42,620 bases of DNA from a virus (lineage: Duplodnaviria > Caudoviricetes), in IMG/VR virus record IMGVR_UViG_3300028920_000133, positions 1 through 42,620 of that record. One strand, 5' to 3'. Positions 32,709-39,685 of this stretch are shown here, in pieces. Every line of letters starts with the position of its first letter. The stretch's first letter is position 1. Position numbers and translations under genes: made by a program. Below the pieces are notes generated by a model, which searched no databases, was not told where the DNA came from, and worked only from the letters and a program-made list of their open reading frames with translations.

Positions 32709-33138
32709 TGGAGGTTACGCCGATCAGCCCGTTTTCGGCACCGGACCAACCTGTCACAAACGACCCAACCTGACTAACCTGACACACCTGACAATCCTGC
32801 CACGGCGTGCATTTTGAGCACAGCGGCACTATCCGACCAAGCATGCCCAATCGGCCACGGCGTGACCATCCGACCAAGCTTGCCCATCATGACGATCAGG
32901 TGCGAAGTCTGAGAGGTTCGCCCACAGCCCGCAGGTAGTTCTCCGCATGCCCGGAATTTGAACGCTAGCGGGCCTGAGCCTGCGCGGAATGCTACCTGCG
33001 TGGGTCAGGGTATAAACGGGCGCACATGCGGTTTAAGGGCCGTTTCTGTTCGAAATTCGCCTAACGTTAACTTTAGTTAACGTTTCGACAAATTGGGGTT
33101 GTTGCAAGATGCAACACCCTACTACGTAGGGAGTTGAA

Positions 33139-35576: not shown

Positions 35577-35645
35577 TTGACAAACTCCGCATTGTTGTGA
35601 TATATTGATTGGGTGCCTGCCAACAGGCATAGCGTTCTTTGAAAA
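35577..35645 (+). promoter_or_regulatory. tRNA-array promoter with boxB-like hairpin and boxA
   Basis: TTGACA-18 bp-TATATT, then hairpin TGCCTG-CCAA-CAGGCA, then GTTCTTTGAAAA. Confidence 0.75.
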
Positions 35646-35660
35646 CAGCGACAGTCATTA

Positions 35661-35733
35661 AGCGGGTAGGGCAGGTGCCCAGCCGGGTCTCATAAGCCCG
35701 GCTTGCAGGGATCGTTACCCTGGCCCGCATCCA
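35661..35733 (+). tRNA. tRNA-Met(CAT), initiator-like, atypical D/T loops
   Basis: CT-CAT-AA loop, 1:72 mismatch, T-loop ATCGTTA, encoded CCA. Confidence 0.7.
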
Positions 35734-35741
35734 TTATATAT

Positions 35742-35817
35742 AGCTTCGGGGTCCGTTGGATGGACGCTTGGTTGTCAGCCAAGGTCGAAGCGGGTTCGAT
35801 TCCCGTCGAAGCTGCCA
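35742..35817 (+). tRNA. tRNA-Asp(GTC)
   Basis: AGCTTCG/CGAAGCT acceptor; CTTGG-TTGTCAG-CCAAG; TTCGATT; CCA. Confidence 0.85.
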
Positions 35818-35823
35818 GTTTAT

Positions 35824-35900
35824 CTGTGTGTAGCTCAGTCTAGCAGAGCACCTGCCTTGGGAGCAGGGGGCCGTGGGTGCAAATCCTACCACACAGACCA
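35824..35900 (+). tRNA. tRNA-Pro(TGG)
   Basis: Cloverleaf; CCTGC-CTTGGGA-GCAGG; CCA. Confidence 0.9.
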
Positions 35901-35991
35901 GATCGTAGGCCGGGGAGAGCGGGGCCAGGGCGTCAACTGAGAGGGCGTTACCTGCGGTGTATTCCAATTCCTACGTGTGGCTCCGGCTTGC

Positions 35992-36065
35992 AGGGGTATG
36001 GTGTAACGGTAACATCTTCGGCTCCAACCCGAAGGATCTGCGTTCGAATCGTAGTGCCCTTGCCA
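35992..36065 (+). tRNA. tRNA-Trp(CCA)
   Basis: TTCGG-CTCCAAC-CCGAA; CCA end. Confidence 0.9.
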
Positions 36066-36180
36066 ATTTAGGTTCCACCTGACCAGCCCTGACGAAGGCG
36101 AACAGAGTGGGCGGACGACAGGTTACCCCTGAAAGAGTGTGCGCGGGCCTCGCCCCCGTGGTGGGCAAATTCTGCGCCAT

Positions 36181-36256
36181 GGGTCTGTATCTCAGTTGGT
36201 AGAGAGTCCGGCTGTTAACCGGAATGTCGTAGGTTCAACCCCTACCGGACCCGCCA
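36181..36256 (+). tRNA. tRNA-Asn(GTT)
   Basis: TCCGG-CTGTTAA-CCGGA; CCA. Confidence 0.92.
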
Positions 36257-36258
36257 AT

Positions 36259-36334
36259 GGATCAGTAGCTCAGATGGCAGAGCAGTTGGTTTACACCCAG
36301 AAGGTCGTAGGTTCGAAACCTACCTGATCCACCA
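36259..36334 (+). tRNA. tRNA-Val(TAC)
   Basis: TT-TAC-AC loop; GGATCAG/CTGATCC acceptor; CCA. Confidence 0.88.
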
Positions 36335-36419
36335 CACGTTGCTCTTCCCGGAGAGATGGCCTAGTCTTGTGCCGGATAAACAAGCAACGGCGGGGGAGCC
36401 GGGACCATCCCCCGTGACC

Positions 36420-36494
36420 GCCCCATAAGCATTTAAAGTGATGCAGTGGTCTTGTAAACCTCAGAACCGGGGGCAGTACCTGGATGGGGCTCCA
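36420..36494 (+). tRNA. tRNA-Thr(TGT), non-canonical T-loop
   Basis: GCCCCAT/ATGGGGC acceptor; CT-TGT-AA loop; T-loop GGCAGTA; CCA. Confidence 0.75.
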
Positions 36495-36506
36495 ATTAAA
36501 ACTTGT

Positions 36507-36582
36507 GCGCCTGTAACTCAGCGAACAGAGTAAGTGGCTACGAACCATTTGGTCGGAGGTTTGAATCCTCCCAGGCGCTCCA
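36507..36582 (+). tRNA. tRNA-Arg(ACG)
   Basis: CT-ACG-AA loop; GCGCCTG/CAGGCGC; CCA. Confidence 0.88.
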
Positions 36583-36585
36583 TAT

Positions 36586-36661
36586 GCGGGTATGGTGTTT
36601 AACGGCAGCATTACAGTCTTCCAAACTGACGGTCCCGGTTCGAATCCGGGTGCCCGCTCCA
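36586..36661 (+). tRNA. tRNA-Gly(TCC)
   Basis: CT-TCC-AA loop; GCGGGTA/TGCCCGC, U73, CCA. Confidence 0.9.
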
Positions 36662-36720
36662 AATAAAAGAGAAGGGAATGAGAACCTGTACACCTGAGCG
36701 AAATAAAATGTTACATGCAA

Positions 36721-36795
36721 GCTCCCGTAGCCTAGCGGAAAGGCATCTGTCTTCTAAACAGACCAACGTAGGTTCGAATCCTACCGGGAGTGCCA
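36721..36795 (+). tRNA. tRNA-Arg(TCT)
   Basis: TCTGT-CTTCTAA-ACAGA; CCA. Confidence 0.9.
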
Positions 36796-36821
36796 ATACA
36801 ATAATCCCACTGGAGAACAAG

Positions 36822-36911
36822 ATGAGCAGATGTCCATATTGCGGTAGCAAAGAGATCAAGAATCGGAAAGAGAAGAGAGTCTGTTCGACGTGTAAGGCTG
36901 TTCTAAGATAG
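36822..36911 (+). CDS. 29-aa zinc-ribbon microprotein inside the tRNA array
   Basis: GGAG RBS; MSRCPYCGS...VCSTCKAVLR. Confidence 0.55.
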   Translation: MSRCPYCGSKEIKNRKEKRVCSTCKAVLR

Positions 36912-36912
36912 C

Positions 36913-36986
36913 GGGAGTATAGTAGAGTGGCGCTACAGTAGGCTTTTAACCTTCTAACCAGGGTTCGATTCCCTGTGCTCCCACCA
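36913..36986 (+). tRNA. tRNA-Lys(TTT)
   Basis: CT-TTT-AA loop; TTCGATT; CCA. Confidence 0.85.
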
Positions 36987-36988
36987 TT

Positions 36989-37081
36989 GGAGGGTAGCGA
37001 CCAACGGTGGTCAAGCGGTCTTGAAAACCGTGCCTTCGGGTTAGTAGCCCGGCGGGGGTTCGATTCCTCTGCCCTCCTCCA
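36989..37081 (+). tRNA. tRNA-Ser(TGA)
   Basis: GCGGT-CTTGAAA-ACCGT; long variable arm; CCA. Confidence 0.88.
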
Positions 37082-37099
37082 TTAACAACACACAGTCAT

Positions 37100-37176
37100 G
37101 TTGAGGGTAGCTCAATTGGTAGAGCGCGTGGATGTGGCCCACGTCGTTGCGGGTTCGATTCCCGTCCCTCACCCCA
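37100..37176 (+). tRNA. tRNA-His(GTG)
   Basis: G-1:C73; CGTGG-ATGTGGC-CCACG; CCA. Confidence 0.9.
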
Positions 37177-37317
37177 GAGTCTTTCCTGAGCGTTTGTGCT
37201 ATGATGGAAGCAGCAATCCATCAATATCCCCAAGGTTTCCGTGGACTCCGGCTGGTAGTCGGCCAGCTAAGGTGCTCAGGGGGTGGCATAACGATTAATG
37301 GGATCAGGAGTCCATGT

Positions 37318-37398
37318 GCCCCGGTGGTGGAACTGGTAGACACGCTGGTCTTAGGAACCAGTCTTCGGGTGAGGGTTCGAATCCCTCCTGGGGCACCA
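37318..37398 (+). tRNA. tRNA-Leu(TAG)
   Basis: CTGGT-CTTAGGA-ACCAG; CCA. Confidence 0.92.
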
Positions 37399-37414
37399 TT
37401 ACATAGGAGAACAA

Positions 37415-37819
37415 ATGTTTTATAAGTGGGACGTAGAGACGGACGAGATCACAAAATGTGATGTCAACGAATTCTGTGAACGATATGAACGCGAAGTAGA
37501 CGCGAAGGAAAGCGGAGATCCCAACCCAAGACGGCTGGAACTCAAAGAGTTCAAGATCTTCGGGTTCACAATTGCCTGGGTCTCCACTGTCTTCCTCGGC
37601 GTTGACCACTCCTGGGACGATGCGGACATGCCGCTGCTGTTTGAGACCATGGTCTTCCCAGGCGGATCATACCTGGAGAGTTACTGCGAAAGGTATGAGA
37701 CAAGCGAAGAGGCAAGACGCGGACACAAGATCGCTGTGCGCTGGACCTTCTGGCGTTTGCCGAAGTTCCTTTATCTAAGGCTGAAGGACAAGCTAGGGAA
37801 AGGCGACGGAGATTGGTGA
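37415..37819 (+). CDS. Conserved-looking phage hypothetical protein in the tRNA array
   Basis: AGGAG RBS; VSTVFLG.DH...LFETMVF.GG...RY.T.EEA..GH motif. Confidence 0.7.
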   Translation: MFYKWDVETDEITKCDVNEFCERYEREVDAKESGDPNPRRLELKEFKIFGFTIAWVSTVFLGVDHSWDDADMPLLFETMVFPGGSYLESYCERYETSEEARRGHKIAVRWTFWRLPKFLYLRLKDKLGKGDGDW

Positions 37820-37886
37820 GCCGTGACTGCCTGCTAAGCAGTTGGTCCTCCGGGGCCTGAGAGTTCGATTCTCTCCCTTTCCGCCA
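37797..37886 (+). tRNA. tRNA-Ser(GCT)
   Basis: GGAAAGG/CCTTTCC; ACTGC-CTGCTAA-GCAGT; long variable arm; CCA. Confidence 0.88.
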
Positions 37887-37895
37887 AAGCATTCT

Positions 37896-37971
37896 TGGGG
37901 AGTAGCTCAACCGGAAGAGCAGCGGACTCTGAATCCGCGTGTTGAGAGTTCAAGTCTCTCCTCCCCTGCCA
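37896..37971 (+). tRNA. tRNA-Gln(CTG)
   Basis: GCGGA-CTCTGAA-TCCGC; CCA. Confidence 0.9.
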
Positions 37972-38045
37972 GGGGCCTTGGTGTAATGGAAGCACGTCAG
38001 ACTTTGAATCTGACAGCGCTGGTTCGATACCAGCAGGCCCTTCCA
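37972..38045 (+). tRNA. tRNA-Gln(TTG)
   Basis: TCAGA-CTTTGAA-TCTGA; CCA; directly abuts the previous tRNA. Confidence 0.9.
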
Positions 38046-38048
38046 TAC

Positions 38049-38123
38049 GGGTCGGTAGCCAAGCGGTAAGGCATGGGATTGCAAACCCCATCAACGTCGG
38101 TTCAACTCCGACCCGGCCCTCCA
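38049..38123 (+). tRNA. tRNA-Cys(GCA)
   Basis: TT-GCA-AA loop; U73; CCA. Confidence 0.9.
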
Positions 38124-38130
38124 GATGTTT

Positions 38131-38223
38131 GCCGAGTGTTCCTCATCGCGGTCTGTAAAACCGCGGGCCATATAACTATGTGAGGTGGTTGGTCAGATGG
38201 TTCAATTCCTTCACTCGGCACCA
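38131..38223 (+). tRNA. Atypical tRNA-Tyr(GTA) lacking a D-arm
   Basis: GCCGAGT/ACTCGGC-A-CCA; GCGGT-CTGTAAA-ACCGC; T-arm present; only 10 nt in place of the D-arm. Confidence 0.65.
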
Positions 38224-38227
38224 AACT

Positions 38228-38302
38228 GCATCGGTAGCTCAGGAGTAGAGCGCCTGCCTGAAGAGCAGGGCGTCGGTGGTGCGATTCCATCCCGGTGCAC
38301 CA
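38228..38302 (+). tRNA. tRNA-Phe(GAA)
   Basis: CCTGC-CTGAAGA-GCAGG; CCA. Confidence 0.88.
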
Positions 38303-38304
38303 TA

Positions 38305-38447
38305 TGGTTCTGTAGCTCAACTGGTAAGAGCGGGAGCTTAACGGCTCCGACACACACTTCGCGGCGAAGTAACCCACGTCGGGAGAAATGTGTAGGCAGG
38401 ACTGGTTACCCTGTCGGTGCGGGTTCGAATCCCGCCAGAATCAACCA
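38305..38447 (+). ncRNA. tRNA-like RNA with a large structured insertion
   Basis: Canonical D-arm (TAGCTCAACTGGTAAGAGC), T-arm (GCGGGTTCGAATCCCGC), acceptor TGGTTCTG/CAGAATCA and ACCA end; 143 nt in total. Confidence 0.7.
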
Positions 38448-38450
38448 TAA

Positions 38451-38524
38451 TGGCTCATGGTGAAATGGTATCACAGGCGACTGATAATCGCCTATTCTTG
38501 GTTCGAATCCAGGTGAGCCAACCA
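38451..38524 (+). tRNA. tRNA-Ile(GAT)
   Basis: GGCGA-CTGATAA-TCGCC; CCA. Confidence 0.9.
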
Positions 38525-38534
38525 AGTGTAATCA

Positions 38535-38609
38535 GACCCTGTAGGATAATGGTTAGTCCACTAGGCTTTCAACCTAGATATCGGGGTTCAATTCCCCGCG
38601 GGGTCACCA
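38535..38609 (+). tRNA. tRNA-Glu(TTC)
   Basis: CTAGG-CTTTCAA-CCTAG; CCA. Confidence 0.9.
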
Positions 38610-38612
38610 TGA

Positions 38613-38687
38613 TCACCCCTAGTTTAATGGCAAAACGGCCAACTTATAATTGGTTGATTCCTGGTTCGACTCCAGGGGGGTGTACCA
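38613..38687 (+). tRNA. tRNA-Ile(TAT)
   Basis: GCCAA-CTTATAA-TTGGT; TTCGACT; A73; CCA. Confidence 0.82.
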
Positions 38688-38688
38688 T

Positions 38689-38771
38689 GCTGGAGTGGCG
38701 AAATTGGAAAACGCGCCGGATTCAAACCCCGGTGTTTCGGCTTAAGGGTTCGACTCCCTTCTCCAGCACCA
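38689..38771 (+). tRNA. tRNA-Leu(CAA)
   Basis: GCTGGAG/CTCCAGC; TT-CAA-AC loop; variable arm; CCA. Confidence 0.88.
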
Positions 38772-38917
38772 CAAAAACATGTGCGCTTAAAGATGACCAG
38801 CCTCACTCCCGGTGGCTCCGGGAACCGCTGTCACACCCACCCGATAGGGTCCTTACATCCCTTAGCCGGGGTTGCGGCAGTCACGGCTGCCCAGCGTAAA
38901 ATGTGTCGGGGCGCACC

Positions 38918-39406
38918 TTATATGTGTCTAATTCTGTGGCACGTTGGGCACAGTATAACAAGGTTTTCGATTGTATTGTTGTCCCTGTTATTATCAATGT
39001 GGTGGACTTCAAGAACGCTTGGCACCTCTGCCCATCCACAGTCCAGGCATTCGTGTTTATGTTCTCTTAGTGCCCTGGTTCTATATGTACGTTGCCCGCA
39101 AGCATAGTGAGGAGGATGGATTTCACTGAGTCCGCTTTCGATTCTTTGGCCGGTATCCTTGCATTTTCTACAGCAAAAATGAAGACCGCTTTTGGATGCC
39201 TTTATCCGGCTTGGCATTTTGTAAAATTTTTTCCCACATTGAGCGCAGACGACATTTGGCTGGTGGTTAACCCTGCGCTGGTTTGAAATCGATTCTCGTC
39301 GGCACCTCTTGCTGCAATACTTCGACAATCCCTTGCCGTGCCCGACGTATGAGGCTTCAAATTTTTTTCCACATATTTCGCATCGTCTTATCTTGTTGGC
39401 TGCCAT
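38918..39406 (-). CDS. HNH endonuclease with N-terminal Cys4 zinc modules, antisense within the tRNA array
   Basis: CEICGKKF..YCSKRC, CAQCGKKF..FCCRKC, LEVHHID.NR.NN..ENL..LCPTCH; GGAGG RBS. Confidence 0.9.
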   Translation of the reverse strand: MAANKIRRCEICGKKFEASYVGHGKGLSKYCSKRCRRESISNQRRVNHQPNVVCAQCGKKFYKMPSRIKASKSGLHFCCRKCKDTGQRIESGLSEIHPPHYACGQRTYRTRALREHKHECLDCGWAEVPSVLEVHHIDNNRDNNTIENLVILCPTCHRIRHI

Positions 39407-39419
39407 TGTTCCTCCGTGT

Positions 39420-39494
39420 GGGGGTGTAGTGTAAATGGGAACACGCAAGTCTTGCAAACTTGAGTTGGAGGTTCGATCCCTCTCATCTCCACCA
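39420..39494 (+). tRNA. tRNA-Ala(TGC)
   Basis: G3:U70; CAAGT-CTTGCAA-ACTTG; CCA. Confidence 0.92.
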
Positions 39495-39505
39495 TTCCAA
39501 GATGG

Positions 39506-39535
39506 ATTATACCACACTTGGTGCAAAGCTGTCAA
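39506..39535 (-). promoter_or_regulatory. Consensus sigma70 promoter on the - strand driving the HNH gene
   Basis: The - strand reads TTGACA-18 bp-TATAAT with extended TG. Confidence 0.8.
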
Positions 39536-39685
39536 CATCCACCATTATATTTAATCATATATATTATTATATAATAAGCTGTAAACGGGCGACTTCGTTA
39601 ATTGTAAGTTATTCATTACATGGGGGTTATGTTGCACGTAAACGTGAAACCGTCGTATTTATTATATATTATATAAGTCTAATTA

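Follow-up and report, generated by a model that had tools for sequence, protein, structure and literature searches.

Between tRNA-Phe, 2 nt upstream, and tRNA-Ile, 3 nt downstream, a phage tRNA array carries a 143-nt gene for a tRNA-like RNA in which two extra hairpins, predicted to pair through their loops, stand in the variable region. It is a real, structurally conserved gene, known from two sequences, and a variant of a kind of RNA that has been named but not explained. We are highly confident of its anatomy and of the conservation of most of its helices in one relative, a phage contig here called X4. The window, that is, the whole 42.6-kb phage contig that was analysed, encodes a DnaB-like helicase, an SSB, an exonuclease, an endolysin and a terminase large subunit, and its DNA is best represented in marine-sediment and salt-marsh metagenomes (run X1 left out). 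Besides the ARAGORN genes, the array holds Thr(TGT) and Tyr(GTA)-like genes, both missed by that program; according to ARAGORN (35661-39494), Ile(TAT) is present, there is a single CAT gene, and the array has neither Leu(TAA) nor Thr(GGT). The features of the gene and its setting are as follows.

35577..35606, + strand: sigma-70-like promoter at the head of the array, 11/12 with an extended -10 (consensus match only)
35661..39494, + strand: phage tRNA array, 23 ARAGORN genes, encoded CCA in 23/23
38305..38447, + strand: tRNA-like RNA gene, 143 nt (142 nt if the 5' end is 38306), a six-way junction
38305..38312, + strand: 5' strand of the acceptor stem, 8 bp with 38436-38443, one of them G.U; no X4 difference listed
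38313..38332, + strand: U8-A9, class I D arm and G26 (GCTC/GAGC, A14, A15, G18G19, A20a, A21)
38333..38348, + strand: anticodon-place hairpin of 5 bp, its 6-nt loop (TTAACG) one nt below canonical
38350..38393, + strand: extra hairpin V1, helices 38350-54/38389-93, 38357-60/38382-85 and 38362-66/38377-81, 10-nt loop 38367-76
38395..38415, + strand: extra hairpin V2, a 6-bp stem (pair probability 0.97-0.99) capped by a 9-nt loop (38401-09)
38369-74 with 38404-09, + strand: predicted loop-loop (kissing) helix, 6 bp, duplex -6.8 kcal/mol
38416..38435, + strand: 3-nt linker whose last base, U48, is the Levitt partner to A15, followed by the T arm with T loop TTCGAAT
38436..38447, + strand: 3' strand of the acceptor stem, discriminator A38444 and encoded CCA, the last A being T in X4

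Fold of the RNA and its conservation in a relative

The tRNA frame drawn in a preliminary description of this DNA, namely an 8-bp acceptor stem (38305-12/38436-43) with an ACCA end, a D arm and a T arm, was found in full, as was its anticodon-place hairpin with a 6-nt loop (38333-48, TTAACG). At the sequence level the elbow contacts of a canonical tRNA are present (U8-A14, 15-48, and G18/G19 with the T loop), and the variable loop is replaced by 70 nt (38349-38418) ahead of the T stem. The acceptor branch is 8/5, since the CCA sits one base beyond its canonical 7/5 place, where no NCCA is read; counted from this CCA, G38307.U38441 is pair 3.70. The possibility that the eighth acceptor pair is a mere juxtaposition of U-1 and A73 was dropped, because a 7-bp stem would put the CCA one base further in. 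The whole RNA folds at -54.9 kcal/mol (z -2.6), with 0/200 shuffles as good.

Within the insert, the inner ACACA/TGTGT stem described earlier has pair probabilities of 0.69-0.74, and the two halves of the suggested GTAACC/GGTTAC pseudoknot are indeed complementary, lie in the V1 and V2 hairpin loops and keep most of their pairing in X4. At least six contiguous Watson-Crick pairs between the loops arose in 0.66% of loop-letter shuffles (P 0.0066), and the V1/V2 kissing topology in 0/300 shuffled inserts. The register of the middle V1 helix, which has a pair probability of only ~0.2, was taken from X4. Of the insert architecture first proposed, the loop-loop helix thus held, whereas the closing stem (CC)GACA/TGTC(GG) did not: its pair probability is 0.00, and 2/4 of its pairs are broken in X4. 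Since the V2 changes that break these two pairs are in step with the hairpin 38395-400/38410-415, we regard the architecture as settled. With the closing stem rejected, the insert consists of two adjacent hairpins and a loop-loop helix, and not of one closed domain.

The comparative support comes from one diverged homolog on one contig, known as a list of differences. This contig, X4 (871 nt, depth 5.6), was aligned to 38049-38489, where it has 34 other letters and one gap relative to the window; 31 of the differences are listed, 19 of them within the tRNA-like gene. Among the 47 modelled pairs, four underwent two-sided compensatory changes, and 4/4 of these are still Watson-Crick. Considering position only, at least four such double hits have a probability of 0.003 if 19 positions are drawn at random, and of 0.0007 if the 12 changed paired positions are taken as given. 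Four other pairs changed on one side, one from G.U to G-C and three with loss of the pair.

38335/38346, + strand: compensatory pair in X4, anticodon-place stem
38397/38413 and 38398/38412, + strand: compensatory pairs in X4, V2
38421/38433, + strand: compensatory pair in X4, T stem
38354-38389, + strand: pair lost in X4, end of the V1 outer helix
38364-38379, + strand: G.U pair lost in X4, V1 inner helix
38369-38409, + strand: pair lost in X4, end of the kissing helix

V1 thus shows one G.U to G-C change and two lost pairs. Read by hand, the kissing helix of X4 has 7 bp, gaining 38375-38403 and 38376-38402 for the loss of 38369-38409. In the D-arm segment the differences are confined to loop positions 38325-26, while the 6-nt anticodon-place loop and the acceptor stem are unchanged; X4 reads CCT in place of CCA, and A20a is also lost. 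The preliminary description had allowed for a decaying pseudogene should homologs fail to conserve the insert; X4 keeps most of the insert pairing, with two compensatory changes inside the insert.

Divergence between the window and X4 amounts to 19/143 in the tRNA-like RNA, compared to 1/75 in tRNA-Cys and 1/75 in tRNA-Phe. This indicates that the shape of the RNA is kept while its sequence is free to vary, unlike that of its decoding neighbours. Within the gene, the insert varies faster (11/70) than the 5' body (4/44). Contigs from runs X2 and X5 are identical to the window across the gene and therefore add no covariation.

Known tRNA-like RNAs and look-alikes

The check with ARAGORN and Rfam proposed in the preliminary description gave a divided answer: ARAGORN misses the gene, and Rfam matches it only with the generic tRNA model RF00005 (44.2 bits, cut-off 29), handling the insert as unmodelled, with no other family at its cut-off. 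Common to the RNA and a canonical tRNA of RF00005 are U8, A14, A15-U48, G18G19, the T loop, a 4-bp D stem and the CCA; it differs in its 6-nt anticodon loop, 8/5 branch and 70-nt variable region. This combination, an RNA missed by ARAGORN and filed as a tRNA by Rfam, implies that genome annotation overlooks the class.

As a kind, however, the tRNA mimic is not wholly new. Phage T5 RNA1 (NC_005859 30501-30644, 144 nt) and RNA2 (32959-33083, 125 nt), both annotated as 'tRNA-like stable RNA with unknown functions', have the same general build: they are of similar size, lie inside a phage tRNA array, and place acceptor, D and T arms around a long hairpin of several helices and, after it, a short one. 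They differ in having two hairpins between the D and T arms, compared to three here, and their sequence likeness to the tRNA-like RNA is limited to the D and T loops. Judged by eye, RNA1 has loops with only ~3 bases of complementarity, a D arm resembling the leucine type and an annotated end without an encoded CCA. Phage T4 rnaC and rnaD (species 1 and 2 RNAs), which measure 139 and 119 nt, are likewise stable and belong to a tRNA cluster. At its end rnaC has a T arm, but its predicted fold has other helices and no D arm, so the tRNA-like RNA is not of the rnaC type, and rnaD is without a TTCGA T loop. Phage tRNA arrays hold tRNA-like RNAs (T5 RNA1 and RNA2, T4 rnaC) whose annotations barely mention function.

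Other known systems share single traits. In the available text of PMC5389517 and PMC7609411, tRNA-Sec has a 13-bp acceptor branch, as has the tRNA-like RNA, and allo-tRNAs are tRNA-Sec-like with 8/4 or 9/3 branches (12 bp), some of them with extra stems and translation-inactive; the tRNA-like RNA differs from both by its 8/5 branch, its class I D arm, the absence of a UCA anticodon and the lack of a match to RF01852. GOLLD and ROOL also occur in phage or prophage tRNA arrays and have kissing loops, but are several hundred nt long and have no tRNA frame (excerpts of PMC12990946), and neither gives an Rfam match on the tRNA-like RNA. Two further candidates were rejected: YrlA, the Y RNA-like RNA with a permuted order (T arm before D arm), since RF02553 scores 17.4 bits (cut-off 69) and only across the boundary of tRNA-Phe and the gene, and tmRNA, for which the permuted Rfam model reaches 10.5 bits on the T arm only and ARAGORN finds none. 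Among the virus tRNA-like candidates in the accessible portion of PMC10690425, none has a two-hairpin kissing layout, and a literature search, mostly of open-access and recent papers, yielded nothing pointing to a kissing-loop architecture on a tRNA frame.

Close homologs were equally scarce in the sequence collections. A blastn search of the gene against 50,697 phage records returned 25 short D- or T-arm matches, none spanning the insert; an exact 25-mer had 0 hits in IMG/VR; kissing-motif scans gave 1 locus and 68 loci with no family member; a terminase-based locus search yielded 0/23 candidates; and scans for the TTA loop gave 43 viral, 91 metagenome (one being the window) and 70 genome loci, of which only L129 (the same locus as L098) has the same topology. 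All patterns fixed D- and T-arm letters, so that diverged members may be missed.

Less close look-alikes are numerous. A scaffold set drawn from at least 450 loci (including 125 of ~3000 and 120 of ~220 in two scans) yielded at least 201 different closed tRNA frames whose D and T arms are 55-105 nt apart. At least 34 of these frames carry a 5-bp hairpin directly after the D arm; at 70% identity they form at least 24 clusters. Although no pattern fixed them, positions 15 and 48 match as G-C or A-U in 23/24 listed clusters (null 12.2, p 5e-5), a match that may be a legacy of the parent tRNA and not a product of selection. A 7-nt loop is found in only 7/24 listed clusters, and CCA follows N73 in 6/24 and comes one base later in 3; L035, L311 and L378 (3/24 clusters) are probably anticodon-stem inserts instead. 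The inserts among the listed scaffolds fall into several unrelated families, and Rfam, run on the scaffolds of 20 loci, matched the generic tRNA model only.

Among the listed look-alikes, L098/L129 is the only one with the two-hairpin kissing layout, formed by 5 Watson-Crick pairs; this pairing is reached by 10/300 shuffles and was chosen from 55 scaffolds, which makes it weak. It differs from the tRNA-like RNA in having neither the G.U nor an encoded CCA, and its locus has no ARAGORN gene and no RF00005 match in the 37.5-kb record (by a loose search, in which the RNA itself likewise went undetected). L196, L157, L044, L085 and L034 were dropped as relatives on account of their different topology.

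Several other groups emerged from these scans. Scaffolds L017, L025, L061, L083, L122, L138, L156, L191, L213 and L216 are, with others, among 42 of 205 that rebuild a canonical anticodon arm once a single 43-73-nt insert is removed. In 30 of the 42 the cut falls after the second stem base (28/29), mostly in Asn(GTT) and Lys(TTT); TTACT occurs in 20 and C(A/T)GCAA in 14, and L017 and L063 have no Rfam match. These scaffolds may represent a class of small introns in phage tRNAs that has not been catalogued. In L003, L037, L039, L048, L051, L057 and L084, the anticodon loop holds a T-arm-like hairpin and then a D-arm-like segment, a permuted tRNA-like unit nested in a tRNA; L003 matches the generic tRNA model only. 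Two related-looking families with a pseudoknotted variable region (L027, L062, L068, L070, L095; and L401, L403, L406, L417, L421) have a 5' linker that pairs with an inner loop, and an unannotated record of a gut phage matches L027 at 94.5%. A frame family with two variable-region hairpins (L345, L357, L363, L365, L388, L392, L420, L428, L437, L442) recurs at ~78-85% identity in 10 plasmid records (Salmonella, Enterobacter, Citrobacter, Serratia), with no annotation beneath the 8 matches listed, and offers a cultured system for the class. On metagenome contig L172, a match to archaeal-type RNase P RNA (833-1115, + strand; 87.5 bits, cut-off 84) lies ~380 nt upstream of a three-arm tRNA-frame RNA.

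Decoding, splicing and proposed role

All of the array tRNAs (23/23) have U33 and purine 37 in a 7-nt loop. The tRNA-like RNA, with a loop of 6 nt, lacks the canonical decoding arrangement of a 5-bp stem, a 7-nt loop, U33 and purine 37, and V2, when read as an anticodon arm, would offer GGU but has 4/5 pairs and U37. Removal of an intron was rejected as well: no single cut at an intron-like position (the 5' anticodon strand) rebuilds a canonical anticodon arm, and this failure counts because the test has power, with 42/205 other scaffolds rebuilding such an arm compared to 18/4100 shuffles. A wider excision scan was uninformative, as ARAGORN called 716/850 products. Rfam detected no group I intron or other ribozyme on the gene. 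No splice joints are listed in 8 runs (3 RNA libraries), which is weak evidence given that these are contigs only and that a single listed RNA contig enters the gene; that contig covers 38155-38377 at a depth of 2.3 and may be DNA, and none is listed over the 3' half of the gene. We consider it very probable that the RNA is neither spliced nor used in decoding. The earlier view that it is a tRNA mimic, and neither an intron-bearing tRNA nor a tmRNA, is supported by the structure kept in one relative, the intact core contacts and the non-canonical anticodon loop.

With the CCA as reference, the base at N73 is A, and pairs 1-72, 2-71 and 3.70 are U-A (not G-C), G-C and G.U, respectively. A G.U at 3.70 occurs in 1/23 array tRNAs (tRNA-Ala) and in the tRNA-like RNA, with no change listed in X4. 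According to the available text of PMC9976931, G3.U70 is the main alanine determinant, and the E. coli leucine identity set consists of A73, A15-U48, G18G19 and A20a; 4/4 elements of the latter are present in the window, and A20a is changed in X4. As read from the sequence, the alanine marks lend some support to the synthetase-binding idea of the preliminary description. Long scaffolds that combine an 8-bp stem with U70-C71 were found at 8 loci, none of the family of the tRNA-like RNA, and the alanine mark is thus known in two close sequences only.

Our tentative reading is that the RNA would mimic a tRNA without decoding and compete for host proteins that bind tRNAs, for example tRNA-cleaving defence enzymes. 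It would be co-transcribed with the array from the promoter at 35577, which, judging from its consensus match, is the likely source of the transcript, and be excised unspliced from the array transcript by the host tRNA machinery, which also matures engineered tRNA scaffolds (PMC3753655). From the intact elbow contacts and CCA we infer maturation by RNase P and 3' trimming. With a 6-nt loop at the anticodon place, it would probably not decode. V1 would fold back at its A-rich internal loop, after which its loop would pair with that of V2, and the two hairpins would form a rigid lobe on the variable-arm side, expected to hinder ribosome entry. Charging with alanine through G3.U70 and A73 is conceivable, though we hold it somewhat more loosely than the mimicry itself, and leucine would be the second candidate. 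As a competitor, the RNA would be a decoy. Phage tRNAs are known to counter PARIS and other defences that cut tRNAs, which makes such a setting plausible, although the source, in its available text, concerns cleavage-resistant working tRNAs and not RNA decoys (PMC11455837). The loops of the class range from 4 to 8 nt, which does not point to imitation of a single nuclease's substrate. If these RNAs are decoys, they would constitute an RNA-based counter-defence distinct from the cleavage-resistant tRNAs described, and a small RNA with a covariation-supported fold and a specific identity signal allows direct tests. An extension that we judge decidedly unlikely is a natural alanine-charged 8/5 mimic whose variable-arm loops would kiss between molecules. 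The resulting multivalent rings, resembling aminoacyl-tRNAs, would sequester immunity proteins that sense or cut tRNAs, and the RNA would be one case of a wider habit among phages of attaching folded modules to tRNA frames.

Other explanations start from the same evidence. The tRNA body might serve only as a frame for maturation and stability, with the kissing module working as an aptamer for a host or phage protein or as a contact that joins RNA molecules into dimers or rings. Many unrelated inserts do sit on the same tRNA frame, CCA follows N73 in only 6/24 look-alike clusters (one base further in 3), the acceptor, D and T arms serve maturation and stability in engineered tRNA scaffolds (as far as the text of PMC3753655 is available), and GOLLD and ROOL of tRNA arrays oligomerise via intermolecular kissing loops (excerpts of PMC12990946); moreover, V1 is far longer than V2, so pairing within one molecule demands a fold-back. 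Rough geometry would nevertheless permit that pairing, 5+6 stacked pairs being set against ~10 folding back. The faster change of the insert (11/70 vs 4/44) leaves no fixed binding sequence apparent, and the anticodon-place loop and the G.U pair are unchanged in X4; we consider this explanation unlikely. That the gene is a tRNA inactivated by an insertion and now drifting, its fold a leftover, would fit a divergence tenfold above that of the neighbouring tRNAs, the change of CCA to CCT and the three lost pairs in X4, and the absence of a close homolog from the scanned collections. Drift of this kind is hard to square with four two-sided compensatory changes, two of them within the insert, with the gain of a G-C from a G.U, or with a loop-loop helix that is re-formed and longer in X4, and we hold a relic to be very unlikely.

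Two further readings would return the RNA to translation. V2 could be the anticodon arm (loop C-U-GGU-U-A) of a masked or intron-bearing tRNA-Thr(GGU), in which a 64-nt insert (38333-38396) would loop-pair with the anticodon until its removal. The register, retained in X4, suits Y32-U33 and a variable loop of 5 nt, the array is without Thr(GGT), and small intron-like inserts do occur in phage tRNAs, as the single-cut test showed. The rebuilt arm, however, has 4/5 pairs and a U37 where 23/23 array tRNAs have a purine, there is no group I or other ribozyme match, the 8 runs list no joints (weakly, as noted above), and G3.U70 is a ThrRS antideterminant in yeast (available text of PMC9976931), which together make this reading highly improbable. 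Barely more than marginal, finally, is an RNA that enters the ribosome, either as an alanine-charged mini-tmRNA-like rescue factor or as a short-loop frameshifting decoder. The alanine marks are as in tmRNA, which is alanylated through G3.U70, and the loop region reads C-U-U-A-A in an array without Leu(TAA). The tRNA-like domain of tmRNA lacks a complete D stem and anticodon hairpin, whereas both the D stem and the anticodon-place hairpin are complete here; neither ARAGORN nor Rfam finds a tmRNA, and on these grounds the mini-tmRNA idea of the preliminary description was abandoned. The insert is also nearly all paired, leaving no free template, and the arm has 16 nt, not 17.

The array and its surroundings

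The array holds further unusual features. The tRNA-Thr(TGT) gene (36420-36494, + strand) has an unusual T loop and falls below the Rfam cut-off. Two gaps in the array, 35901-35990 and 36068-36180 (+ strand), measure ~90 and 113 nt, the second terminating in CCA; in pseudoknot-free folding they do no better than shuffles (z 0.21 and 0.24), and they have no Rfam match. Homologs of an in-array ORF (37415-37819) yielded no genomic context. At the 3' end of the array, an HNH endonuclease ORF (38918-39538, - strand) lies on the opposite strand and overlaps tRNA-Ala, and a 12/12 promoter match in its region (39535-39506) is directed into the array. A small RRM protein (Pfam PF00076; 34688-34939, + strand), encoded ~700 nt upstream of the array, is a candidate partner for the array RNAs, and a 2651-aa polyvalent-type phage protein (634-8589, + strand) contains ART-PolyVal ADP-ribosyltransferase domains.

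The Tyr(GTA)-like gene (38131-38223, + strand), which ARAGORN misses, has no D arm; in its place, 38141-45 pairs with 38181-85 of a long variable region. In X4 that helix has undergone two two-sided compensatory changes (38143/38183 and 38145/38181) and the anticodon stem a third (38152/38160); the 7-nt loop is intact. The gene likely specifies a working tRNA with a pseudoknot in place of the D arm, arguably of equal interest to the tRNA-like RNA.
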